A DNA stretch of 64,000 nt from an uncultured Elusimicrobia bacterium (GCA_903879915.1 CAIRNJ010000102.1:13200-77199); one strand, 5' to 3'; counted from the first letter of the stretch, positions 4,899 to 30,828 are shown. A program made the numbers and translations. The notes: generated by a model from the sequence alone, not told the origin.

Positions 4899-4955
4899 AG
4901 GTTCCTTGGCGAAAAATGGTCAAGACCGGTCCGGCTGCGGCTGGCCCTGTCTATA

Positions 4956-4984
4956 TTTATATTTTATTACTTTTTTACCGTAAA
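4956..4984 (-). promoter_or_regulatory. Candidate sigma70-type promoter for mraY-murD-ftsW-murG
   Basis: The minus strand reads TTTACG-N17-TATAAA inside the only AT-rich stretch (about 4947-5000) between mraY and the divergent C11 gene. It lies about 50 nt upstream of the mraY ATG. Sequence pattern only. Confidence 0.3.
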
Positions 4985-5063
4985 ACATATTTCCCTAAAG
5001 GCCTATCGGCCTATCGCCCTAATTGCTCAGGCCCGCCCGCCCGGTGAGTATCATAATATACCA

Positions 5064-6356
5064 GTGAAAAAAACCGCTCTGCCCCCCGCTTTGCTGTTCA
5101 GCCTGGCTTTTTGCGCCGTGCCCGCGCGCGCGCAGCTTGAAGCGCTCACCGCCGCCGGCCTGCCGGCCGTAGCGGTCCCCGCCGCCGCCGAGCCCGGCCG
5201 CGCGGCCCAGGCCGAGTGGACGGTGCTCATTTACGTAAGCGCCCGCAATAACCTGGGCCTGGAAGCCATCAAGGACGTCAACGAAATGGAAGCCGCCGGC
5301 TCCACCGCTAAAGTTAACGTGGTGGCGGAGCTGGGGCGCATCAAGTGCGATCCCCCTTTCAACCCTTTTTCCAGCACGCAGGAACCGGTGCCGCCGCAGG
5401 CGGACTGGACCGGCTCGCGCCGCTTCCTGCTGGTGAAGGATACCGACCCGCTGAAGATAAATTCCCCGGTGCTGGCCCAGTATCCGGACGCCGACATGGG
5501 CGACTGGCGGCACCTGGCCGAATTCATAGCCTGGGGCAAGGCGGCTTACCCGGCGAAAAAATATATGCTGATAGTGGGCGGCCACGGCAGCGGCTGGCGC
5601 GGCGTAAAGCCCCCTCCCGGCGCGCCCAAGGGCATCGCCTACGATGACGTTTCAGGCAGCCATATCTCCCCCGCCGAGCTGGCGGAGGCTATAAAGGCCG
5701 GCGGCGGCGTGAACGTGTACGCCTCGGACGCCTGCCTGATGCAGACCATAGAAGTGATCTACGACCTGAAGGATTCCGCCGAGTATATCGTTGGCTCGCA
5801 GGAGGCCACGCCAGGCAGCGGCTATAACTACGAGGTTTTCCTGAACGCGCTGGCGGCGGCCCCCGGCGACGCCTTCGCCGCGGCGCAGCACGTAATGGCC
5901 GGTTTCTCCGGCTATTACGGCGGCCTTAAACAGTCGGTGACCATGTCCATAGTGCGCCCAGCTTACGCGGCTGAAATGGCCGGGAAAATGGACAGGTTCG
6001 CCCGGCTGGTGGCCGCTTCCCCCGCGGATATGAAGCTGTACCACGACAGGAAGTTCGGCCTGCGCTCCTACGACGACGAGGACGCCCGCGACCTGTACCA
6101 GCTGATGAAACTGTACTACGACAGCAGCCCCACGCCCGCCGTGAAAGAGGCGGCGCGGGACGTGATAGTGTTCCTGTCGGAAAAGCTGGTGGCGCGCAAC
6201 GACGCGGTGGGCTACAAATCCAAGGACTCCAACGGGCTTTCGGTCTACTTCCCCATCTTCTACATGAACTACAAGCCGAAGTACGAATACCTCTCCTTCT
6301 CCCGGGCCACCTACTGGGACGAAATGGTGAAAGCCGTAGTAGAATCAAAGAAATAA
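5064..6356 (+). CDS. Secreted clostripain-family (MEROPS C11) cysteine peptidase
   Basis: GTG start followed by a signal peptide (VKKTALPPALLFSLAFCAVPARA). C11-type motifs WTVLIYVSARNNL, catalytic-His context IVGGHGSGW and catalytic-Cys context YASDACLM. The upstream 3201-5063 part of the track ORF is an antisense shadow of murD/mraY. Confidence 0.75.
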   Translation: MKKTALPPALLFSLAFCAVPARAQLEALTAAGLPAVAVPAAAEPGRAAQAEWTVLIYVSARNNLGLEAIKDVNEMEAAGSTAKVNVVAELGRIKCDPPFNPFSSTQEPVPPQADWTGSRRFLLVKDTDPLKINSPVLAQYPDADMGDWRHLAEFIAWGKAAYPAKKYMLIVGGHGSGWRGVKPPPGAPKGIAYDDVSGSHISPAELAEAIKAGGGVNVYASDACLMQTIEVIYDLKDSAEYIVGSQEATPGSGYNYEVFLNALAAAPGDAFAAAQHVMAGFSGYYGGLKQSVTMSIVRPAYAAEMAGKMDRFARLVAASPADMKLYHDRKFGLRSYDDEDARDLYQLMKLYYDSSPTPAVKEAARDVIVFLSEKLVARNDAVGYKSKDSNGLSVYFPIFYMNYKPKYEYLSFSRATYWDEMVKAVVESKK

Positions 6357-6367
6357 AACTGCAGCCG

Positions 6368-8083
6368 CTATTCCTTCGCTCCTGAAGAGGGCGGGAAAAA
6401 GAACGCTGAAACGCTGCCCAGCTGCGGCTCGGTCTTCGCGCCGTCGGAATAGATGTAATAAGGGGCGCTGGTGTAGCCGTCCAGGTTGCGCAGCTTCACC
6501 AGCGCGGCGCGCTGCTCCTCGGTGAGCGTTCTGTTCACTTTGGCGAAGGCCATAGTGTAGTACCAGGAAACCTCTCCGTCCAGCTCGCCGTACCGGCGGC
6601 CCAGCGCTAGGACCTTTTCTTTGTCGGGCGCCTGGCCCGCCAGGTACTTGCGCAGCTCAACCGATATTTCCTGCCGCACTTTTATTATTTCCGCCATGGC
6701 CTTGCGCTGGAGGGGCAGCACCGCGTCCACGTGCCGGCGCTGCGCGGGCGTAAGCACCTCGCTGAGGAAGGCCTTGCCGCTGTCGCCGGTCACCGAGGTG
6801 CTGATGTCGAAGCTCTTCTTGCCCATGGCGGGCATGTCCTTCATGTAGAACCCGCCGAAGTAGGTGCCGTGCCGCTCGGGGCAGAAATACGTATCGGCCT
6901 TGACCGAGCCGGCGGTCCAGCTGAAGAACTCGCTCAGATAGGTCATGTAGGCCACGTTGAACATCTTGGGCTTGCCGCGGCCCGCCTCTTTGGCCTCGGT
7001 CTCGTCCAGCTCAGGCCAGGTGGCGAAATCGCCGAACTTCATTTTGGCGAAATAGGCCTTCTGTTCCGCGCTCAGCGACAGCCAGACCTTGGCCATTACC
7101 TCGGCGCGGCGGCGGCTGAGCTCGGCGTCCACTTCAAAGATCCTGCCGACGCTCCGCATTACCGCGGCCTTATTAAGGCCGGTGCTGCCCGAAGGCAGCT
7201 GCTCGTCCTTCTGCATGTGGAAAGCTTTTATGACCGGCAGGCGCAGTTTGGCCAGTGCTACCAGCTGCGGCTGCTGTTCCTCGGCCAGGTCTATGAACAG
7301 CTGCTTCTGTTCGGCCGTTAGGTTATGCGCCACGTTGCCGGCCACCCGGCTGAGGAAGATCGGGTTATGCCCTTTCTTGGCGGCGTCGATGTCGCGCATG
7401 TACTGGAAGCCGAAGAAATCGCACACCTTGCCCGGCGGGATGAACGTGGCCGCGCCGAAATCCCCGGTAAGGAAAGCCAGGCCGTTGAAGGCGATGGTGG
7501 TAAGCTGCGCGTTGTCCGAGACGGCCTGCTCGAGGTTATACCGGCTGCCGCCCTCCTTGCCGCCGCCTTTTCTTCCGGCGCCTCCGGGCCCCCCCTTGCC
7601 CTGGCTGCCCCGCATTCCTCTTTCGCCGTCTTCCGCGCCGGGCCTGTCCGGGGGCGGGTCCATCTGTTTAAGCATCTCGGGATCGAACCCGACGGAGATC
7701 AAAAGTTCGTCTTCAACTGGACCACCCTGCACGCCTATATCCCGCAGGGCCTTGTGTATGGCCTTGGCGTCTTCGGCCGACAAGGCCGAGGCGTCGTACT
7801 TCGAAACTATTTCCGCGGCGCCGGCTTTTTGTTCTTCGGTGATGGTCTGTGAGCCGCCGCGCTCCTGCCTGCTGTTCGCGTTCCTGGACGGCCTTTGCCC
7901 GGATCTCTGCCCGGTCCGCTGTCCCGGCCTCGGTCTCTGGTCCTGCCCTCGCGCCTGCCCCCGTTCCTGCCCCTGGTCCTGCTCCTGCCCCGCTCCCCTG
8001 CCTTCGTCGTCCTGGTCCTGAGCCCGGGCCAGCGGCCCGCCCAGAACCAGCATATAGATGGCCGCCGTTATTAAAAATTTCAT
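6368..8083 (-). CDS. Secreted protein: signal peptide, Gln/Arg/Gly/Asp-rich disordered region, short helical segment, then the uncharacterised X domain with LTXXQ-like motifs (paralogous to the centre of the 1253-aa protein)
   Basis: Start moved to ATG 8083 (MKFLITAAIYMLVLGGPLARAQ signal peptide, GGAGAA RBS 6 nt upstream). The C-terminal ~370 aa align by eye with aa 605-1023 of ORF 8851..12612. Shared blocks: YN[IL]..., FPPGKV.D[YF].GFQ[FY][LM]RD, GHNP.F, LPSG.TGL, FSW..G.V.AD.YFCPER.GTY.GGFY.KD.PAM. Confidence 0.7.
   Translation of the reverse strand: MKFLITAAIYMLVLGGPLARAQDQDDEGRGAGQEQDQGQERGQARGQDQRPRPGQRTGQRSGQRPSRNANSRQERGGSQTITEEQKAGAAEIVSKYDASALSAEDAKAIHKALRDIGVQGGPVEDELLISVGFDPEMLKQMDPPPDRPGAEDGERGMRGSQGKGGPGGAGRKGGGKEGGSRYNLEQAVSDNAQLTTIAFNGLAFLTGDFGAATFIPPGKVCDFFGFQYMRDIDAAKKGHNPIFLSRVAGNVAHNLTAEQKQLFIDLAEEQQPQLVALAKLRLPVIKAFHMQKDEQLPSGSTGLNKAAVMRSVGRIFEVDAELSRRRAEVMAKVWLSLSAEQKAYFAKMKFGDFATWPELDETEAKEAGRGKPKMFNVAYMTYLSEFFSWTAGSVKADTYFCPERHGTYFGGFYMKDMPAMGKKSFDISTSVTGDSGKAFLSEVLTPAQRRHVDAVLPLQRKAMAEIIKVRQEISVELRKYLAGQAPDKEKVLALGRRYGELDGEVSWYYTMAFAKVNRTLTEEQRAALVKLRNLDGYTSAPYYIYSDGAKTEPQLGSVSAFFFPPSSGAKE
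7853..8023 (-). repeat. Low-complexity coding repeat (QDQ/GQR/GQE-rich, about 57 aa)
   Basis: Encodes AQDQDDEGRGAGQEQDQGQERGQARGQDQRPRPGQRTGQRSGQRPSRNANSRQERGG. The DNA shows a cryptic cctg/ctgc periodicity. Confidence 0.6.
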
Positions 8084-8129
8084 AAAGTTCTCCGTTTCCG
8101 CTGCGCCGGGTCTGTCCGCTCTTAACCAC

Positions 8130-8157
8130 TTAAACCTCAGATAGCGTAAAAAGTTCC
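8130..8157 (-). promoter_or_regulatory. ECF-type promoter candidate, site B (upstream of the X-domain gene)
   Basis: The minus strand reads cGGAAC-TTTTTACGCTATCTGAG-GTTTAAg (N17 spacer). Intergenic, between the PEBP stop (8168) and ATG 8083. Same architecture as sites A, C and D. Confidence 0.45.
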
Positions 8158-8167
8158 GCAAGCTCCG

Positions 8168-8788
8168 TTACTGTCCTTCCCCCGGCGGCGGAGGCGGCGG
8201 CCCGTCCGCGCCGTCACTGCCCGGCTCCGTGAACCGCTCATAGATCACGCTGAATTCGGCTGAGCCGAGTATCAGCCCTTTCATGGCCGAGAGCAAAGTT
8301 TCCCGGTTTACTTTCTCCGGCTTAACAGTTATCCTCGGCGCAGCCGACAGCGCGTAGACGGTGTAGATATATTTCTTCGGCCCCGGGCCTTTCGAGTGCG
8401 GCGGCGCGTAGCCCGCCCGCCCGTTCACGCTGTTAGTTCCCAGTATCCCTACGCCTTTTACGTTCTTAGGCAGTTTCCTGGTTTTTGCAGGAATATCGTA
8501 AATTATCCAGTACCATTTGGTCTTGTCCGGCGCGATATGGTGCATGATCAGCGCGAAGCTCTTAGCTGCTTTCGGCGCGCCGCTCCATTCCAGCGGCAGC
8601 GTGGCGCTGGCCCCGTCGCCGGTATATTCCACGGGCAATTGGCCGCCGTCCTCTACGGCGGGGCTCCTGAGCACAAAACCGGCCGCGGAGCTTTTTTTCT
8701 CCGCGCCTTGCTCCGGCTGCGCCGGGGCGCCGCCCGGAAAGGACAGCGCCAGCAGCCCGCCCAGCGCTAAAATAATAAACCGTTCCAT
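8168..8788 (-). CDS. Secreted PEBP/YbhB-YbcL-like protein with a Pro-rich C-terminal tail
   Basis: Start moved to ATG 8788 (MERFIILALGGLLALS signal peptide, GGGAGG RBS). PEBP-like core: LPLEWSGAPKAAKSFALIMHH...KWYWIIYDIP...GYAPPHSKGPGPKKYIYTVYALS. Ends in GPPPPPPGEGQ. Confidence 0.7.
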   Translation of the reverse strand: MERFIILALGGLLALSFPGGAPAQPEQGAEKKSSAAGFVLRSPAVEDGGQLPVEYTGDGASATLPLEWSGAPKAAKSFALIMHHIAPDKTKWYWIIYDIPAKTRKLPKNVKGVGILGTNSVNGRAGYAPPHSKGPGPKKYIYTVYALSAAPRITVKPEKVNRETLLSAMKGLILGSAEFSVIYERFTEPGSDGADGPPPPPPGEGQ

Positions 8789-8802
8789 ATTTCCTCCCGA
8801 TA

Positions 8803-8830
8803 TTAAACAGCTTTGCCCGCAAAAAGTCCA
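8803..8830 (-). promoter_or_regulatory. ECF-type promoter candidate, site D (upstream of the stand-alone PEBP gene)
   Basis: The minus strand reads tTGGAC-TTTTTGCGGGCAAAGCT-GTTTAAt (N17). The -35 is imperfect (TGGAC). It lies only about 15 nt from the ATG, so the leader would be very short. Confidence 0.3.
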
Positions 8831-8850
8831 ACTGCCCGCCGCCCACTTTC

Positions 8851-11800
8851 TCACGGCGCTGTATAGGTCAGCGTCATTGTCGCGGAACTGATAGTGATCC
8901 CCGAAAGCGCGGCCGTAAGAACTGAACCTGTCACCGGTGATGAAAGCGACGGCGCTGCGGACAGGGCGTAGAGCTTATACGTATAAAGCCTGTTGCCGCC
9001 GCCGCAGGGCGGGTTGTAGGCCGTTCCCAGCGGCCCGTCGCTGGTCCCCAGGGTCCCGCCGCCCGTAGTATTCTTGGCGAAGCCTGAACTGCTGCCTGGT
9101 ATGCCGTAGAGTACCCAGTTATACTTGGTCTCTAACTGCGGCGTAACTTCAGACATAGTCAGTGCGAACTGCTGCGTTCCCGAGGGCGCATTGGTCCAGG
9201 ACATGGCGGGAGATGAACTGGAACCGGAACAGGAATATTCCAGCGTCATGGCCCCGCCGCCCGTACCCGCGCCGCTCGTCAGGGTAAAGAGCGCCTGTGT
9301 GACGCTCACCATATGGCTTGCGGAGCCCGAGCCGGCGGAGTTCGAGGCCGTAAGCGTTACGGTATAGGTGCCTGAGGAGGCGTAAACGTGCGCCGGGTTC
9401 TGTGCTGAGCTGGTTGCCCCGTCCCCGAAATCCCAGGCCCACGAGGCAGGGGCGCCGCCGGAGGCGTCCGTGAACGAGACCGTACCGCCGGCGGCAGGAG
9501 AGGAAGGAGAGAAGGAGAACGCCGCCGAGGGCGCGTCGGTGGCGAACAGGTAGTCGGTATCGTCGATATACGGCGTTATCCTGGCCAGCACGGCGGGGTC
9601 GGTGGTGGTGTCCGAGTAAAGGTAAGTGGATCTGCAGACAGAATAGTCGTAAGGGGTCCCGTTGCTATAAGTGCTGATAAGCAGACCGTCCCAGAAATCC
9701 GTCTTCAGATGGGCCCTCTGGGCGGCGCTCAGCGAGTCGGCTACCTGCTTGAAAGTTGTGGCGTAGTAGTAATTGTTAATGCCGTCCAGCGTGCCGTAGG
9801 TGGCCGAGGACAGCGCCAGCACCTGCGCCCTGACGGCGGCGCTGGAAGCGGTAGAGACCAGCAGGGTGCGCAGCAGCGCCGCTATCTGCGCGCGCACTGC
9901 CACTATGCCCTCCATATTGCTCCGCTGCACCTCGATGAGGTTCGTCATGATGGCGGCCTGCGTGGACGCCACGTAGCCCAGGGAACTGTCGAGCAGGGCC
10001 GCCCCGGCGTTGCCGGTCAGCGCGGAGTCTATGGTGTAGCTGACGCCCTGTGGCGCGTTCATGGCCGGCGCGTCCTTGATATAGAACCCGCCGTAATAGG
10101 TGCCCTGGCGTTCTGGGCAGAAATAGACGTCGGCCTCGACGTTGCCGGAATACCAGCTGAAGAGGTCGCCGGCGTAGGTCATTACCAGGGTGTTCATCGT
10201 GGTATTTGAAGCGTTGGCGCCCAGCGCGGTCTCTACCCTTGTCTTCATGTAATTGGCGTCGGTCACGGTCCAGGAGGAAGCGCCCACCCCTTTCATGGCG
10301 TCCAGCTCGGCCAGCTGGGCGCGCGTCATGGAATTATAGACGTTGGCGTAAGCCAGGGCCCGGTCGAAGGCTATCTGGCCGTCCATGAGGTAGAGTTCCT
10401 GCGACACGGCCGTTACCGCGCTCAGGCTGAGGCCGGTGGCGCCGGAAGGGATGTTCCCGTCCATCAAACGCCGGAAAGCTTGTATCAGCCTGAAGCGGTG
10501 ATAAGCGTACTCGTTGACCTGGTCCGCCTGGCTCACTGCCAGGGCCGCCAGCTGCGCCAGCTGGGAGTCGCTGAGTATCCGGATGACGCTGTTGGAGGTC
10601 AGGCCCGTGAAATCCGGGTTGTGCCCCATATTGCTGGGGTCGCTGTCCCGGAGGAACTGGAACCCGGTGTAGTCGGCCACTTTGCCCGGCGGGAAGTACG
10701 ACTGCGAGCCCAGGTTGGCGTTCATCAGGCCGAGGGCGTCGAAGGCCAGCGTGGTGCCCTGGGCCTGGTCGGAGATGCCCTGCGAAATATTATAGGCCGG
10801 CACGGTGACGGTTATAGAGCGGGTCAGCGTGGCCGAGCTGATGGAATTGGCGACCCTGAGCGTGACGGTGTAGCTGCCTGCCGAGCTGTAAACGTGCGTC
10901 GGGTACTGGGCGGTGCTGGTGGACGTGTTGTCGCCGAAATCCCAGGCCCAGGAAACAGGGGCGTTCTGCGAGGCGTCGGTAAAGCTTACCGTGTTATAGG
11001 TGGTAGGGCTGCTCGGGTAGAAGCTGAACGCGGGCGAGACGTTCGCCCGGGCGTAGGTCAGGTTCAGCGCCGCCGAGCTGATGATAAGTGAGGAGATGGC
11101 GCTGGTAAGCACGTCGCCGGTCACCAGGTCCGCTGCCGGCAGGGACGGCGCGCCCGACAGCGCGTATAAAGTGTAGGTATAGACCTTTGGCCCGGGGCCC
11201 TGCGAGCAGGGGGCGGCGTACTCCTGGCTTTGCGTGTCGCTGTTCACGCCCGCGGTGCCCACGCCGGAAGTGTTCTTGTCCAGGCCGGAGGCCGCCGCCG
11301 GTATGGCGTACAGCACCCAGTTCCATTTTGTGCTCCCGTCGCCCGGCAGCGTGGTCATGAGCAGCGCGAACTGCTGCGTGCCCGCCGGCGCGCCCGACCA
11401 GGCCAGGGCCGGGGAGGCGTACGCGCCGTCGCAGGTGTACTCGGCGGCCATGGCCGCCCCCTCCGCGCCTACGGGGCTGGTCAGCGCGAAGGCGCCCGCC
11501 GCCGCCACGGTTACGGTATGGCTGACCGCGCTGGAGCCCGCCGTATTCGCGGCCGTGAGGCTCACCGTGTAGCTGCCGGAGGAACTGAAAACGTGGGTCG
11601 GGGATTGCAGGGTGCTGCTTGAGCCGTCGCCGAAATTCCAGGCCCAGGAAGCGGGCGTGTAGGCAGAGGTGTCCGTAAAAGTCACCGTCTGGCCGGCGGT
11701 GGGCGAGGCGGGCGAAAAACTGAAGGCGGCTACGGGCGCCGACGATACCGCTGCCTGCGTATAGGTCAGCGTCATGGCGGCCGAACTTATGATCAGGCCC

Positions 11801-12612: not shown

Positions 12613-12613
12613 A

Positions 12614-13207: not shown

Positions 13208-13241
13208 ATGCGTATCCATACACAGGTACACATCCGCTTAT

Positions 13242-13269
13242 TTAAACAGCGAAACCGGAAAAAAGTTCC
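13242..13269 (-). promoter_or_regulatory. ECF-type promoter candidate, site A (upstream of the barrel + giant protein genes)
   Basis: The minus strand reads cGGAAC-TTTTTTCCGGTTTCGCT-GTTTAAa (N17), immediately after the terminator hairpin and about 35 nt upstream of ATG 13207. Confidence 0.45.
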
Positions 13270-14848: not shown

Positions 14849-17322
14849 TTATCTATGGACCGTGTTTCCTGCGCGGCCAGCGCGCTCTTCAGGTGACGGG
14901 CCGCGCTGTCCAGGTCGGGGTCGATGCTTAACGCTTTCCTGTAGGAAGCCAGCGCTTCGTCCCGGCGGCCCAGCTTTTCCAGCACCGCGCCCAGGAGGTC
15001 GTACGTACCCGCGTATTTCGGCTCCAGCCTTATCACTTCTCGGTAATGGGTTTCGGCCTCGCCGAACTCGCCGCGCGCCGCGAGCAGGGCCGCTAAAATG
15101 TCGTGAATGGCCACGTTGTTGCGGTCCAGCCGCGCCGCTTCCCTGTATTGCTTCACGGCCTCGGCCGGAGTACCCTGCGCTTCAAGGGCGGCGCCCAGCT
15201 CGGCGTGCAGCAGCGCGGTGTCGGGGCTCAGCTTCAGCGCCGCCAGGTATTTCTCTATGGCTTCAGCGAGCATTGCTTTTCTTTCCGCCCCGGAATATTC
15301 CGCCGGGCCCGGCGGCACATAGTCGTAGCGGGCTTTCAGCGCCGCGTGGTAATTGGTCCTGTCATCAGGCAGCAGGCTCTGCATGCCCAGGGCGCCGGCC
15401 AGATAATAGAACACGATAGCCGAATCCGGCCGCGCATTTATTGAGTCCCTGTAATGGCCGATCGCGCCTTTCAGGTCGCCGCGCTTAGCCAGGAGCAGGC
15501 CCATATTGGCGTGCGCGTGGGGATCGTTGGGGGCTAATTTAAGCGCCTCGTTCAAATGAGAGAAAGCCTCCTCGCGGCTGCCGGTCTTCTCCAGCGCAAC
15601 GCCCAGCAGGATCTGCACTTCGGTGTTCCCTGGGTCGAGCTCCAGCGCTTTGCGGTACGAAGCTATGGCTCCGCCGCTGTCGTTGGCCCTGGCGAACTCG
15701 AGGCCCGCCCGGTGGAAGGAAAGGCTGTCCAGGAACCTTTCGCGTATCTTTTTAAGTATGCCGCCTTTAGCCGGGAGGAATTCCGGGATGTTGGCCGCCC
15801 TGTCGGGCGCGGTAAAGCCGTCCAGCAGGACAGGGGGCGTATCGTTGCCCTGCGCGTCGATATGGGTAAGAAAAAGCTGTGTATAGGGCGTGTTGGCCTT
15901 GGAGGCGAAGACCAGCCAGCGGCTGTTGGGCGACCAGCTGTGCCAGGAGTTCATCGTGGGTTGGTTGCAGCGCATTTTCCTGGCTTCGCCCCCGCCGGCG
16001 GGCATGATATAGAGCTCGCTGTCGGGCTGCAGCAGCATGAAACTTTTCGCTTTGCAGAATATTATCCATTTCCCGTCGGGCGAATATTTCGGGAAGAAAT
16101 TGCTCATGCCGTTATCGGAAGCGCCCTGCAGCGGTTCCGGCTTGCCGCCGCGGCCTTCGTTGAAAGCAACGCGGTAAAGGTCGAACAGGAATTTCTGGCC
16201 GCCTTCCAGGAATTCCGCGCATTCTTCCTTCGCCAGCAGCACCTTGTCCCTATCGCGCAGATTTTTCAGCTTATGCGCCAGGTTCCTGGCGAAAACGATA
16301 TACTTGCCGTCGGGGCTCCAGGCGGGGTTGCTCTGTACGAATTCGGGGTCGTCAGCGCCCGGCAGCGCCTGGAAGGTCTTAGCCGCGCGGGAATAGACGG
16401 CCAGGATGCCGCTGACCGGAAAAAAAAGCTGCGAGAAGGCCAGCCCCGGCGTGGCCACGAACACCGAGCGGTCCTTGACCGTGCTGACCGCGTACCGCCC
16501 GTCCGGGGAAACCTGCGAAAGCAGGCCGAAGGTCTGGACGCCTTCCGTCCTTTTATAATCGTGCCAAGTGATGATCTTGCTTTTGTCGAGGATGGTCTCT
16601 TCGAGCACCCGGGCGATGGCGTAGGAGCCTTTGTCGTTGGCGTAATCCACGTCCATGCCCAGCACCGAGCCGTCGGCGGAAAAGGAATGGCAGTTGCCGC
16701 AGACCGGCAGATTCTCCAGCACTACCGGGGGCTGCGTTCTCAGGGAGACCTTCCCCAGCCGCCAGCGGATGCGCGAGGGGTCCTTTACCGCCTCGCTGAA
16801 CGGCAGGTTCACTTCCCTGTAGAACAGCGGCGCCTCTACTTTGTCTTTGGAGGTGCTGAAGGAAATGCTGCCCGCAGACAGGATATTTCCGGGCGCGCCG
16901 CGGGCGGCGCCGGCCACGGTAAGCCTGGCGGTCCGCTCCAGCGACCGGCGTTTGATAAGCTCCCAGTCGTCGTTGCCGGGAGTCCACTCCGGGGCCGCGG
17001 AAATAAAGCTCAGGCGGCCGCCGGCCGCGCCGGAGAATTCTATAGTCACCAGCCACAGGTCCGCGGCGGCGTTGTTGTCTTTCCAGCGGAACCCGGGGGC
17101 CGCTATGTCCGCCGGGAAAAGCGTGCCGTCGAAAGGTTTCTCGAAGGTTATGCCGCCGTCAGCCGCTCCGCTCCTGTAAGCCGCCAGCAGGGCGGCCAGG
17201 GCGGGGTCGGGCCTGGCCGGCGCGGCCGAGATAGTGCGCAGCAGCCCGGCGCCCAGTACGGCCAGCAGCAGCAGCGCGGCGCGGCGGTGCTGCTGTACTA
17301 TGAAGAGCGTGATGGTTCTCAT
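14845..17322 (-). CDS. Secreted protein: N-terminal domain with a single CXXCH motif, TolB-like PD40 beta-propeller repeats, C-terminal TPR repeats
   Basis: Signal peptide. VCGNCHS at aa 207-213. PD40-type repeats (VSPDGRYAVSTV, WSPDGKYIVFAR, YSPDGKWIIFCK, WSPNSRWLVFAS). At least five TPR-like units in the last ~270 aa (for example AIASYRKALELDPGN, AIGHYRDSINARPD, ALASYRKALSIDPD). Confidence 0.75.
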   Translation of the reverse strand: MRTITLFIVQQHRRAALLLLAVLGAGLLRTISAAPARPDPALAALLAAYRSGAADGGITFEKPFDGTLFPADIAAPGFRWKDNNAAADLWLVTIEFSGAAGGRLSFISAAPEWTPGNDDWELIKRRSLERTARLTVAGAARGAPGNILSAGSISFSTSKDKVEAPLFYREVNLPFSEAVKDPSRIRWRLGKVSLRTQPPVVLENLPVCGNCHSFSADGSVLGMDVDYANDKGSYAIARVLEETILDKSKIITWHDYKRTEGVQTFGLLSQVSPDGRYAVSTVKDRSVFVATPGLAFSQLFFPVSGILAVYSRAAKTFQALPGADDPEFVQSNPAWSPDGKYIVFARNLAHKLKNLRDRDKVLLAKEECAEFLEGGQKFLFDLYRVAFNEGRGGKPEPLQGASDNGMSNFFPKYSPDGKWIIFCKAKSFMLLQPDSELYIMPAGGGEARKMRCNQPTMNSWHSWSPNSRWLVFASKANTPYTQLFLTHIDAQGNDTPPVLLDGFTAPDRAANIPEFLPAKGGILKKIRERFLDSLSFHRAGLEFARANDSGGAIASYRKALELDPGNTEVQILLGVALEKTGSREEAFSHLNEALKLAPNDPHAHANMGLLLAKRGDLKGAIGHYRDSINARPDSAIVFYYLAGALGMQSLLPDDRTNYHAALKARYDYVPPGPAEYSGAERKAMLAEAIEKYLAALKLSPDTALLHAELGAALEAQGTPAEAVKQYREAARLDRNNVAIHDILAALLAARGEFGEAETHYREVIRLEPKYAGTYDLLGAVLEKLGRRDEALASYRKALSIDPDLDSAARHLKSALAAQETRSIDK

Positions 17323-17337: not shown

Positions 17338-20300
17338 TTACGGCCAGAAATCCCGCGGATAGAGGCGCACCACTTCGGCGGCTTCCCCTTTTTCGCGGAC
17401 GAAACTCTCGTAGCTCCGGATCAGGCTGTCCGGTCCTGTTAAAAAAGCGCCGGCCTGCGGCGAGTCCGAGACCCTGCCGCCGGGCAGCCCCGGCAGCACC
17501 CGGCCGAGCGCCTTCAGGAAGCGCGCGCGCACCAGCGTCAGCGTGCCGGGCCTCCGGGCGAGCTCGAGCAGCGCGTATTTATAGGCGTGCACGGCCTCCG
17601 GGCGGTTGCCCTCTTCCAGGTCGTAGGCCAGGGCGGCGCCGCGCGACGAGAAACTCCCCGCGGCGCGGTAGTCGGCGAAGGAAGTGGCCAGGCTGTATTC
17701 GAGCTGGGAAGTATCTTCTATCTTCGTCTCCGCCGCTACCCCGGCCGCGAAGCGGAGCGTCTGCGCGGGGTCGGGGCATTTGTCGGCGTAATACCTGGCC
17801 TGACCTATCGAAGCGTAAAGCCCCAGCCCGTTGCTGTAAGCCAGCCCGGCGCCCCAGGTGCGCATGAAAAGCGAGTGCGCGCCGCCGCCCGCCAGGATCC
17901 CCAGGGCCAGGGCGTCGGGCAGGTCGCCGGGCTGAAAGGAATTATAGCCCGCTGCCGGCGTCCAGACGCTGATCGTGCCGGTCTTGCCGCCGTTGTTGAC
18001 CAGCGCTACGTGCGCCGGCCGGCCTATGCCGGGCAGGCGCTGGCGCAGCCGGCCTACTACCAGGTCCTTGCGCGGCGGCGCCGCCGCCTGCCTGCCCCTG
18101 GGCAGGCGGTCCAGCAGCGTTTCCAGCTGCCGGGCCGCCCGGTCGCTGTTCGCGGCGTTGCCGTTGATATGCACCCGCGTACCGGTGCGCACCAGCACGC
18201 CCGCCGCCAGCGCCTGCAGCCGGCGGATGGTCTCGGCGGGATGCCCGACGTCGGCGAGGAAATCGGAGGCCAGCGTCCGAAGGTCGGCGCGCCAGGAATC
18301 ATCGGGCAGGTGCGCGAATTCCCAGCGCAGATATTCGCCGAACTCGCCGTCCACCCCGGCCAGGAGTTTTTCCGCCGCGGCCCTGTCCGAGGTTTTCGCG
18401 GCGGCCATTACTTCGGCCGCGGCGGCGCGCAGGGCGGCCAGCCGCTCCGGCGCCGGGTCCTCCAGGCGCCAGCGCAGGCGGTTGAGGCTGCGCAGCACGG
18501 TGAAGGGGCTGGAGATGTTCATGTACAGCGGCCTGTCCTGGTATCTGTAGGCGGCTACCGCCTCGGACACCCAGGATTCCTCGTCCTGCTGGAAGATGCC
18601 GCGCCAGCCCTGAATGCCGGCCCGGAGCGTGTCTATCAGCCGCTCCCGGGCCGCCGGCGTCAGGCCGGGGCGGAGCAGATAGTTCTCTATCCAGGCTACG
18701 GCCCGGTCGACTTCTTCCGGCGAGGAAGCGGTAGCGCTGAAGCTGAGCTCGGCGCGGTCGCTGCGCGGGTAGGCCGCTACGCCTACGCCGGCGTCGTAGA
18801 TCTCGGCCATGATGCGCTCGCGGGCCGCGGCGTAGTCCAGCCGCTCGCCCGCCCGGGTGACCACGCCCACGGAGCCGAGGGCGCCGCCCAGCAGGGGCAG
18901 CAGCTCCCGGTCCCCTTCCGGCACGCCGCGCAGGTCGAAGTTCACGCTGATATCCGTGAAAGGCGTCTGGAACTGCGTTCGCACCAGCCGCGCTCCTGAA
19001 GCCATAAGACTTTCGCTCCAGGCAAGCTGGTCCAGTTCCAGCGGGGGCTCGCGCAGAAAAGACGGCTCGGGCGCGCCGCGCTCAAGCGCTTCGAGCTCGG
19101 CCGTGGCAGACGCGGTCTCGGCGCGGTAGCGCTCCAAGGCTTTCGCCTCAGGCAGACCGTATGCAACTGTCAGACGCTGCGAAACCGCTTTGAGGCGTTG
19201 CTGCTTCAGACCCTTCTCATGCTCGAGGAGGGCGGGATCAGGAAGGACCGCGGATACATATGGTTGTTCCAGCATGCCTGCGCGCTCGAGCGCTGCCGCC
19301 CAGGGATTCTTCCCCTCACCGAGCTCCGCGAGCAGGCGGTCTAGGGCCGCGTCTTCGGACAGCGATTTATCGAAACCCGGATCGGCGGAAAGTCCGTCCA
19401 GAAACCTGTGCCAGCTTTCGCCGGTGGAGCGTTCGCCGAACATAGGAGGCCCTTCCATCGCCTTAAGCCGGGAGCGCCGGTACGAGAGCATGCGTGAGCG
19501 CGCCCGGTCCGCTACCTCGGCCAGTTCAGGGCTGCCGGGTTTGAGATCGTGCAACCAGCGTACGCGCTCGTTTACTATGTCTCGCAGCCGCCCCAGTTTG
19601 GCCGGTGTAACATTGGCCGGCGGTATGCCGGAAAGCCACAGCATGGCATAAGAAGCGGGCAGGGCCTCGGCATCAGCGCCGATGTTGGTAGCGCCGGAAT
19701 CAAGTTTTCTGGTTTTCTGGTCTATCAGGTCGCGGTACAAGTAGGAAGTTTCACCTCCGCCTAGGAGGTCAATAGCCAGGTCAATGCGGGGCTTTTCGTC
19801 AGTGCTGAACGTCTTTCCAGGCGGCCAGGCCAGCAGCGCGTCCTGCGGCACCGGCGTACCATCGGAAGGGAAACTGCCTATCCGGACCTCGCGGCTCTTC
19901 AATGGCTCAAAAGGCGGCAACCCGGAGTAGGAGCCTGCAGGCGGTTGCGGCTCCAGGCGCAGGATCTCGTCGTTGAGTCGCGCCAGGAAGTCGGCGGCGT
20001 CCCAGCCCTGCGGCAGAGCCGCTATCATCTCCATGTTCCCGTCCAGATGGTAATGGGTGGCGTGAAAAGCGCGTACATCGGCCGGCGAAAGTTCCCATAT
20101 CTTTTCCGGTCTTCCCCCCTGAACGCGCGCCAGTGGGTGCTTTGGGCCGTACAGCATCTCGGTGAGCTGATACCAGCGTATCCAGGCCGGCTGTTCCGCA
20201 CTCGCCACCATTTCGGTATATACTGTTCCCTTTTCCTCCAGCTTAAGCAGTCCGCCTTCCTCCACCACGGCGGTATGCGCTATCTCACGGCGCATTTCCT

Positions 20301-20781
20301 CGTCCGTAATGTTCGGGCGCATCAGGGCGGTCAGATAAGAACTGAACAGTTCGTAGAACTCGGCAGGGCCGGCAGCCGTTGAAAACTGGTAGTTCGTTAA
20401 ATCGGAATATGAGACCGCGTTATGTTTGCCCATCCGCATCTGCATAAGCGTGTTGAGTTCCCGTCCCATCGTACCTTTGCCTATAAGGAGATGCTCCAGC
20501 GTATGCGCCGCGCCGCGGTCGTCGGCTGGAAGCGTGCGGAAATAGACGGAGACCTGCGGCACAGAGTCGAAGAACAGCACATCTACGGTCAGCCCGCGGT
20601 CATGCACGAAACGGGCCCCTTTGGGTCCGCCTGAGGGGTCCAGGTACAGGGCGCTGACCCGGAATGTTTTCGCAAATACCTGATCTTGTTTCAAGGCGGT
20701 GAGGTCGCCGGGGCCTGCGGCGTTAGCCAGGGCGGAGAGCATTAGAGATAGCCAAAGGAAAATTATCGGGCGTGGAGCCAT
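17338..20781 (-). CDS. Oversized (1147 aa) secreted M16 (pitrilysin/insulinase) family zinc peptidase
   Basis: Signal peptide MAPRPIIFLWLSLMLSALANA. Inverted zinc motif HxxEH (AAHTLEHLLIGKG) followed by a downstream Glu-containing segment (VYTEMV). About twice the length of typical M16 subunits. Confidence 0.75.
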   Translation of the reverse strand: MAPRPIIFLWLSLMLSALANAAGPGDLTALKQDQVFAKTFRVSALYLDPSGGPKGARFVHDRGLTVDVLFFDSVPQVSVYFRTLPADDRGAAHTLEHLLIGKGTMGRELNTLMQMRMGKHNAVSYSDLTNYQFSTAAGPAEFYELFSSYLTALMRPNITDEEMRREIAHTAVVEEGGLLKLEEKGTVYTEMVASAEQPAWIRWYQLTEMLYGPKHPLARVQGGRPEKIWELSPADVRAFHATHYHLDGNMEMIAALPQGWDAADFLARLNDEILRLEPQPPAGSYSGLPPFEPLKSREVRIGSFPSDGTPVPQDALLAWPPGKTFSTDEKPRIDLAIDLLGGGETSYLYRDLIDQKTRKLDSGATNIGADAEALPASYAMLWLSGIPPANVTPAKLGRLRDIVNERVRWLHDLKPGSPELAEVADRARSRMLSYRRSRLKAMEGPPMFGERSTGESWHRFLDGLSADPGFDKSLSEDAALDRLLAELGEGKNPWAAALERAGMLEQPYVSAVLPDPALLEHEKGLKQQRLKAVSQRLTVAYGLPEAKALERYRAETASATAELEALERGAPEPSFLREPPLELDQLAWSESLMASGARLVRTQFQTPFTDISVNFDLRGVPEGDRELLPLLGGALGSVGVVTRAGERLDYAAARERIMAEIYDAGVGVAAYPRSDRAELSFSATASSPEEVDRAVAWIENYLLRPGLTPAARERLIDTLRAGIQGWRGIFQQDEESWVSEAVAAYRYQDRPLYMNISSPFTVLRSLNRLRWRLEDPAPERLAALRAAAAEVMAAAKTSDRAAAEKLLAGVDGEFGEYLRWEFAHLPDDSWRADLRTLASDFLADVGHPAETIRRLQALAAGVLVRTGTRVHINGNAANSDRAARQLETLLDRLPRGRQAAAPPRKDLVVGRLRQRLPGIGRPAHVALVNNGGKTGTISVWTPAAGYNSFQPGDLPDALALGILAGGGAHSLFMRTWGAGLAYSNGLGLYASIGQARYYADKCPDPAQTLRFAAGVAAETKIEDTSQLEYSLATSFADYRAAGSFSSRGAALAYDLEEGNRPEAVHAYKYALLELARRPGTLTLVRARFLKALGRVLPGLPGGRVSDSPQAGAFLTGPDSLIRSYESFVREKGEAAEVVRLYPRDFWP

Positions 20782-20862
20782 GATTAATTTTACTACAGTT
20801 GCAAGGTTATCTGTACATAAGGTGCCTAGATACGGCCACTTATAAGAAAGGCCAGAGCACTA

Positions 20863-22353
20863 TTATGTATCGTTAAATGGCGGTTCCTTGCCGGAAGCTT
20901 TTACCCATGGTAGATGCGCAAATCTTTCAGGGCTATATCCGGTGGCCATTGTAATGTTATCATACCCTCTAGTATGCAAGTCTTTTGCTATATCTTCACC
21001 TTTAACTCCGCCGCCTAGTTCAGAATCAATGTAAAACGGAGTGTCTTTTGGCAAAGTCCCCAAAACAGATGTAAGCTCTTCAGCGTTTTTATACGTTCTT
21101 AGATCCATTCGGGTGGCTTTGGCGGCCATTTCCCAATTCATGCGCACTAATTTGTCATCGTCAACCAATATCACCGTACGTTTTTTTGCAGGCTTAAATG
21201 TTGGAAGCGTTAGAATTACTATTGTTCCGTGATCAGGTTTGGATTCAATTTTAAATACGCCGCCCCAGTTTTCAATGCTTATCCGCGCGTGATACAGTCC
21301 CAGCCCGTTGCCGCGGGTTTTTCCGTGTGTTTCTCCCCTACGCCCGAGCTTCGCTAGTATTTCAGGCGGAATCCCTTTGCCGTTATCCTTCACGGTTATT
21401 GAAACCATCCCATCGGCGCCAGACAACCCTACTGTGACGGCTCCTGGACCAGTAAGAGCCTCAACGGAATTGTTTATGAGGTTGGATAACAGCCGCTGGA
21501 ATTCCTTGGGATCAGTAAGAACTTTTAATTCATCTGAGGAATTGTGTAACTCGAATATGACGTCGGTTCTATAACTATACTGGAGACGCTTTTCGGCCAG
21601 AACTTCCTCTATAAGCGGTGTCAAGGCGCATGCAGTAATCTTACCGCTTTCAACAGTAATGGCGGAAGGCGTACGGTATTTCCTCAGCAAGTCGTCCGCT
21701 ATTGTATTCATGCGGGTCACCGCGCCGTTCATAAGTGCGCGTTGTTCAGCCGGGATCTCAAACCCCGTTGCCGCGGTTCTCAGTGCCGCTAGAGGAGATC
21801 GTATGTCATGCGCCACTTGTGCGGCAAGGTTCGAATAGGATTCTTTTATCCGCAAATCTAGAAGGAGATTATAGTCCCTTATCAGCCTTCTGCGTTCAAA
21901 ATAAGCTATGGGTAGGGATAGTAACGCTATAATAAGCCAGGCAATAGTGGCCCAGATTACGGGCATCAACCGGGAATAGTAAAACAGCATAGCCCCAGAT
22001 GAAAACCGGCGTTCTTCATCAAAATATAAACGCACGTTGGCAGAGGCGTAAAGCAAACGATTGCATTTTTCCGCATCAATCGGCACACTGAACCCTTTTT
22101 CCGCTCCGGTGGGGCGCCAGGACATGCCGGAAAAATCGTGCGACATGGACGAGGTCAGGGTGATAATAGTCTGACGCGTGTCACCAGACAATATCGAGTC
22201 ACGCGAAGCGGCGGAAAGTTGGTCTCCCAGGCGCTGTTTGAAATAAGCGGTGAAAACCACGGACAACATCAATGCCACTATATAGATTACCAGCTGGAAC
22301 ATCAGGAACTTTATAAAAAGTCTCTTAATGGATTGCTTTATTTCAGGGTCCAT
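20863..22353 (-). CDS. Hybrid sensor histidine kinase (2 TM, HisKA, HATPase_c, C-terminal receiver)
   Basis: H-box AAQVAHDIRSPLAAL. N/G boxes (LINNSVEAL, DNGKGIP, GNGLGLY). REC-like C-terminus (VILVDDD...FYIDSEL...KEPPF). Preferred ATG is 22353 with an AAGGAG RBS. Overlaps the upstream SBP-like gene by 16 nt. AT-richer than the surroundings. Confidence 0.8.
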   Translation of the reverse strand: MDPEIKQSIKRLFIKFLMFQLVIYIVALMLSVVFTAYFKQRLGDQLSAASRDSILSGDTRQTIITLTSSMSHDFSGMSWRPTGAEKGFSVPIDAEKCNRLLYASANVRLYFDEERRFSSGAMLFYYSRLMPVIWATIAWLIIALLSLPIAYFERRRLIRDYNLLLDLRIKESYSNLAAQVAHDIRSPLAALRTAATGFEIPAEQRALMNGAVTRMNTIADDLLRKYRTPSAITVESGKITACALTPLIEEVLAEKRLQYSYRTDVIFELHNSSDELKVLTDPKEFQRLLSNLINNSVEALTGPGAVTVGLSGADGMVSITVKDNGKGIPPEILAKLGRRGETHGKTRGNGLGLYHARISIENWGGVFKIESKPDHGTIVILTLPTFKPAKKRTVILVDDDKLVRMNWEMAAKATRMDLRTYKNAEELTSVLGTLPKDTPFYIDSELGGGVKGEDIAKDLHTRGYDNITMATGYSPERFAHLPWVKASGKEPPFNDT

Positions 22354-23876
22354 TTTAAATTTCTCCTTAGCCTCCAAAGCGCATCACCGGCAATAGCGGG
22401 CGGGTAGTTAAATGCCCACGGTTTGCGCGCCACGGAAGCATACGGGAGCAAGCCGATGGGCAGCGCACGCGCGTCGTAAAGTGTTTTATATTGAAGCGCC
22501 TGGATCATTCTCATTCGCGCGTTTTTGTCTTGGGACGCTATATAATCCGCGAACCACTTTCCCTTTTCAGCGGGGGTCATACTGAAAAAATCCATGTCCA
22601 GATAATAAGCCAGCAATCCTACATCGTCCTGAAAGCCCATATCGCAGCCAAAAAGATAAAAATCCGGTTCATGCACAACTTTGCTGCTCTTAGGTGGATA
22701 AAGGTCTTGATATTCTACCTTCGGCATCCATTTTTTTATCTCGTCTCCGTCCAGCCAAAAATAGCTGTATAGCCGTTTCGCTTCTACTTTCTTTTTTAGT
22801 ACCACTTCAGCCCCGGTATTTAGAAGCGCTTGTATTTCCCTCAGCTGCATTTTGGAAAGACCACCCTCCATTTGAAATATCTGGTCCGGAATTTCAAGCA
22901 TGCGGCGTCTTAGCGGGTAAAGGCCGCGCAGTTTTCTGGCTATAAAAAATCTTTCCTCTCTTGATAGTCTTCTCCTTCCTCGCTCGGTAAACAGGACAAA
23001 TAGCATCCTAACCGGCCGGCTAAGATGAATATTGTACCCGGGATTTGCGGCAACAAAGTCCACCTTGTCTTCCGGCTTAAGCACGGCGCTTATCCTAAGA
23101 TAATCAATTGTTTTATCTGAAAGCATGCCAAGTATTTCTTCGTTTTTAAGATATTTAGTGAAGGCAATAATTTTAATATTTTGAGGTATTTTATCTGAAT
23201 AATGATAATGGAACGGATTAGCTTTTAGCTTTATATTCCCTGCGCCTGGGTAGGCGTTCACATAATATGGCCCGGAGGTGTTTCTGTAATCGTTGATTTT
23301 GAAGGTTTTCTGGTCTATGGAGCCCCGCGGAATCACGGCATAGGTAATATTTGTCAGCAAATGGAAAAGGAACGTTTTCCGCTCGGCGAATTTCATTACG
23401 AGATTCTGCCCATTGTCACTAACTTGCAATCCGGGGCAAGGATCCTGCAAACTCATAAGTGCAGTTTTGCCGCATAACAGTTTGCTTAAAAAACCATACC
23501 CGCTTCCGCCAAGAATAAAAAGCCGCTTCAGACTCTGTTCTGCATCAATGGCATTTATTGGCAGTCCGTCCACTGTTTTAAGGTCTGTGCGCATCTTGAA
23601 GCGCGCTTCATTCCCCACCCACTCGAACCTCTCTGCAATTCCTGAAACAATCTCGTTTCCTGCGGAGTATTCTAAAAGCGGGCTAAAAATATTTTCTAAA
23701 AAAAAATAATCCCTGTTATATATGATGGCGGCAGTGTCATAATAAGAAGGTGGATTTGTCGTGTCTAGCAGCACCTTAAGTTCCGGGGATGGTCTTGACC
23801 ATAAAATCCAGGCAACGAAAAAAATGACCGACCCAGTAAGCAGGGACGGCCATTTTTTGCGTAAGGGGATACGCAC
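22338..23876 (-). CDS. Membrane-anchored solute-binding-protein family 5 (peptide/nickel type)-like protein
   Basis: GTG start and N-terminal TM anchor. FSPLLEYSAGNEIVSGIAERFEWVGNEARFKMRTDLKTVDGLPINAIDAEQSLKR matches the SBP_bac_5 N-lobe pattern (L...d..g.i.P.lAe.we...d...y.F.lR......dG.p..A.D). No ABC permease or ATPase genes nearby. Confidence 0.6.
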   Translation of the reverse strand: MRIPLRKKWPSLLTGSVIFFVAWILWSRPSPELKVLLDTTNPPSYYDTAAIIYNRDYFFLENIFSPLLEYSAGNEIVSGIAERFEWVGNEARFKMRTDLKTVDGLPINAIDAEQSLKRLFILGGSGYGFLSKLLCGKTALMSLQDPCPGLQVSDNGQNLVMKFAERKTFLFHLLTNITYAVIPRGSIDQKTFKINDYRNTSGPYYVNAYPGAGNIKLKANPFHYHYSDKIPQNIKIIAFTKYLKNEEILGMLSDKTIDYLRISAVLKPEDKVDFVAANPGYNIHLSRPVRMLFVLFTERGRRRLSREERFFIARKLRGLYPLRRRMLEIPDQIFQMEGGLSKMQLREIQALLNTGAEVVLKKKVEAKRLYSYFWLDGDEIKKWMPKVEYQDLYPPKSSKVVHEPDFYLFGCDMGFQDDVGLLAYYLDMDFFSMTPAEKGKWFADYIASQDKNARMRMIQALQYKTLYDARALPIGLLPYASVARKPWAFNYPPAIAGDALWRLRRNLKWTLK

Positions 23877-23881
23877 TTCAG

Positions 23882-24091
23882 CTATTTTCCCTTGAGTACC
23901 TTTGGGTGGGTAGGCGGCGGGATGGGGTCCGGTTGAGGTGATGTGTCGTCCTTTCCGGCGTTCAGGCTAATATCATAGCCAGTAGAAGAAGTAAGCGCAT
24001 ACCCATGCTCGGGGAACAGCGACAATGCTATGAAAGATAACATTCCGGTAAAAATAATGTTCACCAGAGCCGCTAAAAGTGTTTTCTTCAT
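23882..24091 (-). CDS. Small (69 aa) secreted/anchored protein with a Pro-rich C-terminus
   Basis: ATG 24091 with GGGGAA upstream. MKKTLLAALVNIIFTGMLSFIALSLF hydrophobic N-terminus, then ...DDTSPQPDPIPPPTHPKVLKGK. Its stop lies 5 nt before the SBP-like gene start. No recognisable family. Confidence 0.4.
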   Translation of the reverse strand: MKKTLLAALVNIIFTGMLSFIALSLFPEHGYALTSSTGYDISLNAGKDDTSPQPDPIPPPTHPKVLKGK

Positions 24092-24200
24092 TGTATTCCC
24101 CAATTAGAAACGGTAGCCATTTCCCCATTACTTCATTATATATACTTTAACAAATAATGATGAAGAGCAAAAGTGGCATTAGGCCTATTCGGGTATAGGT

Positions 24201-30819: not shown

Positions 30820-30828
30820 CGGTTAGTA

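Follow-up and report, generated by a model that had tools for sequence, protein, structure and literature searches.

A 19.3 kb gap of probable layered origin splits the division and cell wall gene cluster of an uncultured Elusimicrobiota bacterium

Introduction

The dcw cluster, named for division and cell wall, is a textbook case of extreme gene-order conservation, with a canonical order of mraZ-rsmH-ftsL-ftsI-murE-murF-mraY-murD-ftsW-murG-murC-...-ftsZ, and murF-mraY is among its tightest pairs. How, then, can the two genes of this pair come to lie more than 19 kb apart? The question is raised by a stretch of 64,000 nucleotides from an uncultured Elusimicrobiota bacterium (GCA_903879915.1, CAIRNJ010000102.1:13200-77199), which we call the window and which carries an MraY that occurs in freshwater-lake metagenome assemblies. 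In the window, all ten dcw genes from mraZ to murG are present and collinear on the minus strand, as judged by NCBIfam, and the murF stop (24201) is separated from the mraY start (4898) by 19,302 bp that hold 13 real genes.

An earlier model-generated reading of the sequence by itself (the original prediction) had given this gene order and these limits of the split, both of which NCBIfam upholds. It had also counted 14 open reading frames (ORFs) in the gap, all unrelated to peptidoglycan synthesis. The count has to be lowered to 13 genes, and the description stands, as no block product matches a known peptidoglycan enzyme family in Pfam or NCBIfam. The premise that murF-mraY adjacency is highly conserved proved sound. 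Collections with one genome per species gave 80 MraY loci. In about 76 of them murF stands immediately before mraY, a set that spans Proteobacteria, Acidobacteria, Nitrospirota, Spirochaetes and others, together with the nearest named Elusimicrobiota, namely Elusimicrobiaceae (63-64% MraY identity) and Endomicrobiellum (52-53%). The dcw cluster has likewise been described as among the most stable bacterial clusters (PMC8871954). In the literature consulted, we found dcw organization in Elusimicrobia described in no more than passing mention.

Here, we compare the split locus with those of graded relatives and with a sister contig. Our preferred explanation, to which we assign a probability of about 75%, is that the gap arose through layered insertion and accretion at a permissive site, which lies between two separately promoted dcw units.

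Results

The murF-mraY junction is open across the clade

Graded MraY homologues were traced to their contigs by exact-protein look-up, which brought about 20 kb around each relative's mraY into view. A metagenome-wide search for MraY loci gave identities of at most 65% among the matches listed and was not used for close synteny. In the relatives with 90, 86 and 84% MraY identity, a reverse-strand C11 peptidase gene stands alone between murF and mraY, in a gap of 1.5-1.9 kb. The junction of the 81% relative is occupied by a ROK kinase and that of the 76% relative by a 120-aa protein and a TPR protein, while mraY-murD is unlinked from murF in the 73% relative. A sister contig, L176 (GCA_026388125.1), has dcw flanks that are 96% identical in nucleotides to those of the window and reads murF-M16-C11(reverse)-mraY. 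The murF-mraY gap in relatives thus measures 1232-5008 bp, compared to 19302 bp in the window.

The junction is thus open across the whole clade with content specific to each lineage, which suggests that the opening goes back to the ancestor of the clade. C11 orthologues with 77-82% identity occupy the same place in the relatives with 84-90% MraY identity, and C11 is the apparent oldest resident of the gap.

A sister contig lacks two tracts of the block

A blastn comparison with L176 yields three collinear blocks, in which window positions 24682-24233 correspond to L176 1-450, 20722-17300 to 581-4004, and 6356-1 to 4009-10364. The window has two extra tracts relative to L176, one on each side of the M16-like gene. 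The larger of these (6357-17299, minus strand), as delimited by the blastn breakpoints, is a 10.9 kb tract that runs from the TPR gene through an LTXXQ gene and has a composition indistinguishable from that of the rest of the 64 kb. Its former presence in L176 has left a probable trace: L176 keeps the 17-nt spacer after the M16 stop, as well as the TPR gene's ribosome-binding site, its ATG and some seven of its codons, and this remnant is joined 4 nt from the C11 stop codon. Since the start of the TPR gene remains in L176, we consider it quite likely that the common ancestor had both M16 and the 10.9 kb tract and that L176 deleted the latter, rather than that the window received a fresh insertion.

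The original prediction that the block is an insertion stands, with refinements. Relatives carry different and much shorter content, and the same genes were not seen at the junction in all relatives. A single event does not fit, given that C11 is older and that, for the 10.9 kb tract, loss from the sister lineage is likelier than a fresh gain in the window.

The M16 gene itself has been found in other places. In a relative with 74% M16 identity, it lies between tmk-holB-cysS and ribonucleotide reductase. In a relative with 60% identity (L179/L180 13598-23444), it has a PemK toxin-antitoxin pair on one side and, on the other, a region with a phage-integrase fragment, a Prim-Pol gene and a type I restriction-modification system. 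These unrelated contexts indicate that the large M16-like gene often changes neighbourhood.

A low-GC tract, a mosaic M16 gene and a new MurF tail

The second extra tract belongs to a putatively imported segment of about 5.1 kb (19107-24232, minus strand), which comprises a three-gene sensor cassette and a divergent 5′ half of M16 and is delimited by divergence, synonymous divergence (dS) and GC content at third codon positions (GC3). The GC content of the low-GC stretch is 0.43-0.50, compared to 0.62, and in tetranucleotide usage the cassette correlates with the window at 0.27-0.64, the mean being 0.91, which makes it the sole outlier in 64 kb. Cassette GC3 is 0.47-0.53, whereas that of the dcw genes is 0.80-0.86. 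Along the block, base composition and codon usage are atypical at 20.7-24.2 kb (GC 0.45-0.48, GC3 ~0.5), partly atypical at 19.1-20.8 kb and normal at 4.9-19.1 kb. This composition and codon check agrees with the earlier proposal of a nested, separately acquired AT-rich part; the limit proposed for that part, 20.8 kb, is too narrow, as the import reaches into M16 at about 19107.

All three cassette genes lie on the minus strand. Nearest to murF is a small membrane or secreted protein of 69 aa starting MKKTLL (23882-24091), which is 41% identical to the 60-aa product of the first gene of an orthologous cassette in a groundwater Elusimicrobia contig, L177. It is followed by an N-terminally anchored, SBP_bac_5-like periplasmic protein of 512 aa (22338-23876; Pfam SBP_bac_5 E = 1.4e-7, just below cutoff), which is 58% identical over its full length to a 504-aa protein of L177, and by a sensor histidine kinase (20863-22377, probable start 22353; HATPase_c E = 2.9e-22, HisKA E = 3.3e-5 and slightly under the Pfam cutoff). 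The three products of the L177 cassette (60 aa, SBP and kinase) are 41, 58 and 63% identical to their counterparts, respectively, and the existence of this orthologous cassette elsewhere indicates that the three genes form a unit. A Response_reg domain was found in no block product, leaving the kinase without a cognate response regulator in the block; in L177, a sigma-54-type regulator lies 1.6 kb from the cassette on the opposite strand. The L177 cassette has the GC content of its own contig, 0.60. Because the nearest homologues of the kinase are all from Elusimicrobia, at no more than 64% identity, and because the cassette orthologue resides in an Elusimicrobia contig, it is probable that the donor belonged to this phylum too and was an unsampled bacterium of lower GC content.

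The import extends past the kinase. Relative to L176, dS in M16 is 0.55-1.44 over the first ~560 codons and 0.02-0.13 over the last ~550, the latter matching the 0.08-0.15 of the genes flanking the block. A likelihood change point falls at about 19107, with 23.8% mismatch on its 5′ side and 4.2% on its 3′ side (2 x delta log-likelihood = 303). Over the 5′ half, GC3 is 0.64-0.74 in the window versus a host-like 0.79-0.94 in L176, and the protein is 76% identical to that of L176 in its N-terminal half and 96% in its C-terminal half. This abrupt change in divergence inside the gene marks the window's M16 as a mosaic allele, the 5′ half of which came with the import.

At the opposite end, the homology shared with L176 and all the relatives breaks off at 24233, which is two codons short of where murF ended ancestrally. 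From there (24232-24201), murF takes its last codons from the imported DNA, and these encode the tail EPNPCTSLGQ, such that MurF ends in ...EGLEPNPCTSLGQ before its stop in the window versus ...EGL(xx) before the stop in all relatives; the tail is about 9 residues longer and unique to the window. With one end of the tract inside M16, the other end was joined without extended homology, and no repeat was found at the murF join. A homologous crossover inside M16 together with a non-homologous join in murF is the pattern of homology-facilitated illegitimate recombination (HFIR), as defined previously (PMC3240628), and we lean towards HFIR as the route of import.

A conserved motif upstream of mraY

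The original prediction reasoned that mraY-murG would need a promoter of their own and put a candidate at 4956-4984. Within this interval, on the minus strand, lies the AT-rich motif AAAAGTAATAAAATA (4960-4974, core TAAAAT 4966-4961), which is near-invariant upstream of mraY. It sits about 40-70 nt upstream of the mraY ATG, in the 165-bp spacer between mraY and C11, and is unique within the window. The motif is kept in six lineages (the window and the 90, 86, 84, 81 and 73% relatives), even though the gene upstream varies (C11, ROK, Crp) and the spacer around the motif cannot be aligned. In addition, C11 is on the opposite strand, so any transcript continuing from murF would cross all of C11 antisense. 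Both observations favour the predicted promoter, with the motif to be read as a phylogenetic footprint and not as a mapped start. Our reading is that AAAAGTAATAAAATA probably forms the -10/UP region of a promoter for mraY that the clade inherited from its ancestor.

A generic sigma-70 scan returned only a weak TTGACC-18-TATGCT overlapping the mraY start codon and missed AAAAGTAATAAAATA, and it was set aside as uninformative. Terminator-like matches were no more frequent than in shuffled sequence, and no Rfam match reached the gathering threshold for a structured RNA or riboswitch in the 64 kb, the gap and the mraY upstream region included.

The other half of the cluster begins with a Pmra-like promoter and four GTGGTG-type repeats (30784-30859, minus strand), which were read from the sequence and are conserved in five relatives. 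In the window, TTGACA lies at 30859-30854 and TATACT at 30834-30829, followed by four GTGGTG-type direct repeats with 10-nt spacing at 30819-30784; in the window and relatives alike, the arrangement is TTGACA-N17-19-TATACT and then four GTGGTG repeats. By analogy with the known E. coli and Bacillus MraZ operators, we take the repeats upstream of mraZ to be MraZ boxes. About 140 nt upstream of mraZ, AATAAAATATA (30891-30901, minus strand) shares 11 nt with the mraY motif and is partly conserved in relatives. It may be a regulatory element that the two dcw halves have in common, or the likeness may be due to chance in AT-rich spacers. A second AT-rich element is located at 5051-5060, 3 nt before the GTG start of C11, and reads TATATTATGA on the minus strand and TCATAATATA on the plus strand. 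This element is common to the window and relative L171, is found in part in L170 and L084, and may serve as the -10 box of a C11 transcript with a short leader or none.

Cargo of the gap

Gene identities in the gap were assigned from Pfam and NCBIfam profile matches together with database gene calls. On the murF-proximal side, the sensor cassette is followed on the minus strand by the M16-like (insulinase-fold) secreted protein of 1147 aa (17338-20781; weak Peptidase_M16/M16_C matches) and by the TPR gene (14845-17322), which encodes a Tricorn_N/PD40 beta-propeller and TPR protein of 825 aa with a signal or anchor sequence (Pfam TPR and PD40; precomputed Tricorn_N). Next on the same strand come an ECF-type sigma factor (14261-14848), with Sigma70_r2 at E = 1.3e-21, r4_2 at E = 1.1e-17 and TIGR02937 at 115 bits, above cutoff, and a zf-HC2 anti-sigma factor (13740-14228; zf-HC2 E = 3.5e-4 and NCBIfam anti-sigma E = 1.6e-9, both below curated cutoffs). 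The anti-sigma gene adjoins the sigma gene downstream, and the sigma factor has Sigma70 regions 2 and 4 only.

Downstream of this pair, still on the minus strand, are a Spy/CpxP-like (LTXXQ/Metal_resist) protein of 135 aa (13336-13743; weak Pfam matches, E = 2.6e-4 and 9.4e-4), a lipoprotein-like protein of about 200 aa (12614-13231) with an N-terminus of ...SILLLGC and no Pfam or NCBIfam match, a secreted PKD/PEBP repeat protein of 1253 aa (8851-12612; PKD_4 E = 1.4e-66, PBP (PEBP) E = 8e-44), a secreted PEBP/YbhB-family protein with a 206-aa gene call (8168-8791; PBP E = 2.3e-20, TIGR00481 52.7 bits), and a secreted protein with a C-terminal LTXXQ domain (6368-8086; LTXXQ E = 2.2e-8). The 1253-aa protein is a series of three PKD+PEBP repeats of some 700 nt that have diverged, and its middle shares about 36% identity over some 400 residues with the LTXXQ protein at 6368-8086. 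Secreted proteins that multiply PEBP domains are unusual.

The last gene before mraY, and divergent from it, encodes the C11 (clostripain-family) secreted cysteine peptidase (5064-6356, plus strand; Peptidase_C11 E = 5.8e-41); its stop lies 11 bp from that of the LTXXQ gene. Several ORFs in this region are high-GC shadows and were discarded, namely the minus-strand ORFs 5019-5585, 5652-6044 and 5926-6348 over the real C11 gene and a 1051-aa plus-strand ORF (3201-6356) around it. The SBP/kinase, M16, C11, ECF and PEBP/PKD families of the original prediction are all confirmed, with the correction that C11 is on the plus strand and that ORF 5019-5585, on the minus strand, shadows it in antisense.

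A signal peptide or membrane anchor is present in nearly every block product. The cargo is almost entirely envelope-related, secreted or sensory, and a role in peptidoglycan precursor synthesis was not detected among the products.

The two dcw halves and their surroundings

All dcw genes lie on the minus strand. The upstream half starts with mraZ (30306-30755; TIGR00242, 106.7 bits, above cutoff) and rsmH (29425-30390 as the longest ORF; TIGR00006, 277 bits), the true start of which may be near 30309, as in relatives, whose rsmH is called at 294-312 aa. A gene for a conserved 56-aa protein (29235-29405), recognized by its conservation in relatives, lies between rsmH and ftsL. In four relatives, with MraY identities as low as 81%, the protein is 63-77% identical and keeps 32 invariant residues (MYPxNILK...PTKIFYLWEKHG...); the gene is missing from the 76% relative, and its product has no family match. 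This ORF is a real gene and may encode a clade-specific small dcw protein. The half continues with ftsL (28890-29210), for which NCBIfam FtsL matches are weak and below cutoff and the position is conserved, ftsI (27159-28853; FtsI-type class B PBP by PBP family matches, with PBP_dimer and Transpeptidase in orthologues), murE (25574-27127; NF001126, 523.7 bits) and murF (24201-25577; TIGR01143, 337.6 bits). In the 90% relative, a CsgG-family gene stands between ftsI and murE (L084/L085 4402-5241), a second lineage-specific dcw insertion in the clade.

The downstream half comprises mraY (3813-4898; TIGR00445, 369 bits), murD (2430-3797; TIGR01087, 378.6 bits), ftsW (1250-2395; TIGR02614, 349 bits) and, as the last dcw gene here, murG (132-1256; TIGR01133, 245 bits, just under cutoff). 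After murG, the window and relatives L084, L086, L170, L171 and L176 have a gene for an Ldh_2-family dehydrogenase, not murC. The large ORFs examined in the rest of the 64 kb are mnmE, jag, yidC, glyS, an Omp85-family gene and nadE, and none of them matched murC, murB, ddl or ftsQAZ. Taken with the Ldh_2 gene after murG, this indicates that the dcw cluster is fragmented at a second point in the clade.

Upstream of mraZ (31020-39533, minus strand) are a Peptidase_MA_2 gene, gidB, gidA, mnmE, jag and yidC, in an order that is repeated in relatives. This set usually adjoins the replication origin, and the dcw cluster may for this reason be origin-proximal in the clade.

Soundness of the assembly

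Independent assemblies from other samples match the window at 99.7-100% identity across murE-to-SBP and across ECF-to-ftsW, and the longest contig reported for the kinase and for MraY is in both cases 197,672 bp. Together, these data rule out an assembly chimera. Contigs that contain murF often end inside the low-GC SBP gene, at 22724-23324, and 12 of about 21 index blocks hold only contigs of 2-5 kb. Up to the break, the contigs compared that end at 22.7-23.3 kb agree with the window at 99.7-100% identity; heterogeneity among strains, or lower coverage of the imported tract, could account for the breaks.

Discussion

Our comparison suggests how the murF-mraY junction may have been filled. In this groundwater/freshwater clade, the dcw genes would be expressed as two units, mraZ to murF from the MraZ-box promoter and mraY to murG from their own AT-rich element. 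Because mraY would no longer depend on read-through from murF, the junction could tolerate foreign DNA and become a site of gene turnover. We propose at least four steps for the 19.3 kb gap of the window. An old insertion would have brought in the reverse-strand C11 peptidase, common to relatives down to 84% MraY identity. The M16-like gene, common to L176, would then have arrived between murF and C11, probably together with the 10.9 kb tract, which L176 would later have deleted. Finally, the window's lineage would have imported about 5.1 kb from a lower-GC Elusimicrobia donor, through a homologous crossover inside M16 at one end and an illegitimate join two codons before the murF stop at the other, creating the new MurF tail.

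Several observations weigh against parts of this history. No donor was found, the nearest kinase being 64% identical, and the difference in GC3 between the cassette (~0.5) and the imported half of M16 (~0.69) makes more than one import possible. The choice between insertion and deletion for 6357-17299 depends on about 40 nt of kept homology, and a gene other than the TPR gene follows M16 in the two more distant genomes. Block genes may also have been relocated elsewhere in the relatives' genomes, beyond the ~20 kb viewed around mraY. With regard to transcription, no conserved -35 hexamer accompanies AAAAGTAATAAAATA among the lineages compared, the motif could instead be a regulator-binding site, and we infer both mraY promoter activity and the lack of murF read-through from sequence features.

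Other explanations must be set beside layered accretion. Were the long block ancestral to the clade, the shorter gaps of the relatives would be secondary deletions. For the 10.9 kb tract, L176 indeed has the look of a deletion derivative, since it keeps the start of the TPR gene, and most of the block (4.9-19.1 kb) is compositionally host-like. However, three successive outgroups (90, 86 and 84%) carry C11 only, with unrelated spacer lengths, and the 81% and 76% relatives hold entirely different genes, such that several independent clean deletions would be needed. Moreover, the M16 homologues with 74% and 60% M16 identity sit in unrelated contexts, and the low-GC cassette and divergent M16 half cannot be ancestral, which leaves an ancestral block unlikely. 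A self-mobile element that targets the murF-mraY spacer, whether an integrative element, a transposon or a prophage remnant, would account for a large lineage-specific block that is compositionally foreign in part, and many metagenome assemblies do break inside the block at 22.7-23.3 kb. Against this, none of the 13 block products has an integrase, transposase, relaxase or phage domain in Pfam or NCBIfam, there is no tRNA gene in the 64 kb, and the block edges carry neither direct nor inverted repeats, the only repeats found being the internal PKD/PEBP domain repeats. Furthermore, each end of the imported tract falls within a coding sequence, one in M16 and one at the stop of murF, which fits recombination of naked DNA rather than site-specific integration. 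We regard a mobile element as very improbable and have dropped it.

It is also conceivable that the gap genes were recruited to the dcw cluster as a module for envelope stress or peptidoglycan remodelling, made up of the C11 and M16 peptidases, the ECF sigma factor, the Spy-like LTXXQ chaperones and the SBP-kinase sensor, and kept near mraY by selection for co-regulation. The signal peptide or anchor on nearly every product would suit such a role. C11 and mraY diverge from a common 165-bp control region, an arrangement that goes back at least as far as the 84% relatives, and a PEBP gene also adjoins mraY-murD in the 73% relative. The identity of the cargo, however, is not conserved across the clade, where a ROK kinase, a TPR protein or radical-SAM/Crp is found instead, and the M16 and kinase cassettes occur in unrelated contexts elsewhere. 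Because identity is not conserved and no product matches a known peptidoglycan enzyme family, we favour passive accumulation at a permissive site and consider recruitment of the whole module improbable. For C11, a constant divergent neighbour of mraY since the 84% relatives, functional coupling to cell-wall synthesis is possible. A bolder reading strikes us as doubtful: the junction would be a long-lived and selectively maintained landing pad within an essential operon, made permissive by the independent mraY promoter, with the highly conserved dcw flanks as homology arms through which diverged lineages swap envelope-related cargo, and C11 would be a new cell-wall-linked factor that shares a bidirectional control region with mraY.

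Layered accretion at this junction would have consequences beyond the window. The locus shows at base-pair resolution how the constraint on dcw order could relax, in that a downstream half with its own promoter would leave the junction free to gain and swap cargo. It further illustrates that an essential gene such as murF can have its stop codon overwritten without gene loss. The locus therefore serves as a worked example for operon evolution and recombination in uncultured phyla, and it highlights a clade-specific candidate promoter motif and a conserved 56-aa dcw gene.

How does the locus compare with known systems? Like the canonical dcw cluster, the window has mraZ to murG collinear on one strand and a MraZ-box promoter before mraZ. 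It differs in being broken by 19.3 kb at murF|mraY, in ending at murG followed by Ldh_2 instead of murC, in its clade-specific 56-aa gene and in a second half that appears to be separately promoted. The block also resembles genomic islands at recombination hot spots, in that essential flanks are conserved, content varies, and part of the content is atypical and absent from close relatives: L176 is without 6357-17299 and about 20723-24232, and the 84-90% relatives have C11 only. Unlike such islands, it is without an integrase, tRNA or direct repeats and is mostly of native composition, and the hot spot lies inside a normally inviolate operon. The likeness to HFIR (PMC3240628) lies in the switch from 24% to 4% divergence in M16, which would serve as the anchor, and in the non-homologous join within the last murF codons; here, the mechanism is deduced from sequence alone, and the 5.1 kb possibly reflects more than one event. 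As in ECF sigma/zf-HC2 envelope-stress modules, the sigma and anti-sigma genes are neighbours, and genes for LTXXQ-type and secreted proteins come next on that strand, whereas the linkage of the window's pair to the dcw cluster is probably incidental. Splits of the dcw cluster and lineage-specific insertions into it are known in general, and islands between core genes are commonplace. Rather than a new kind of system, the window's locus is a new and well-resolved case in a poorly studied phylum.

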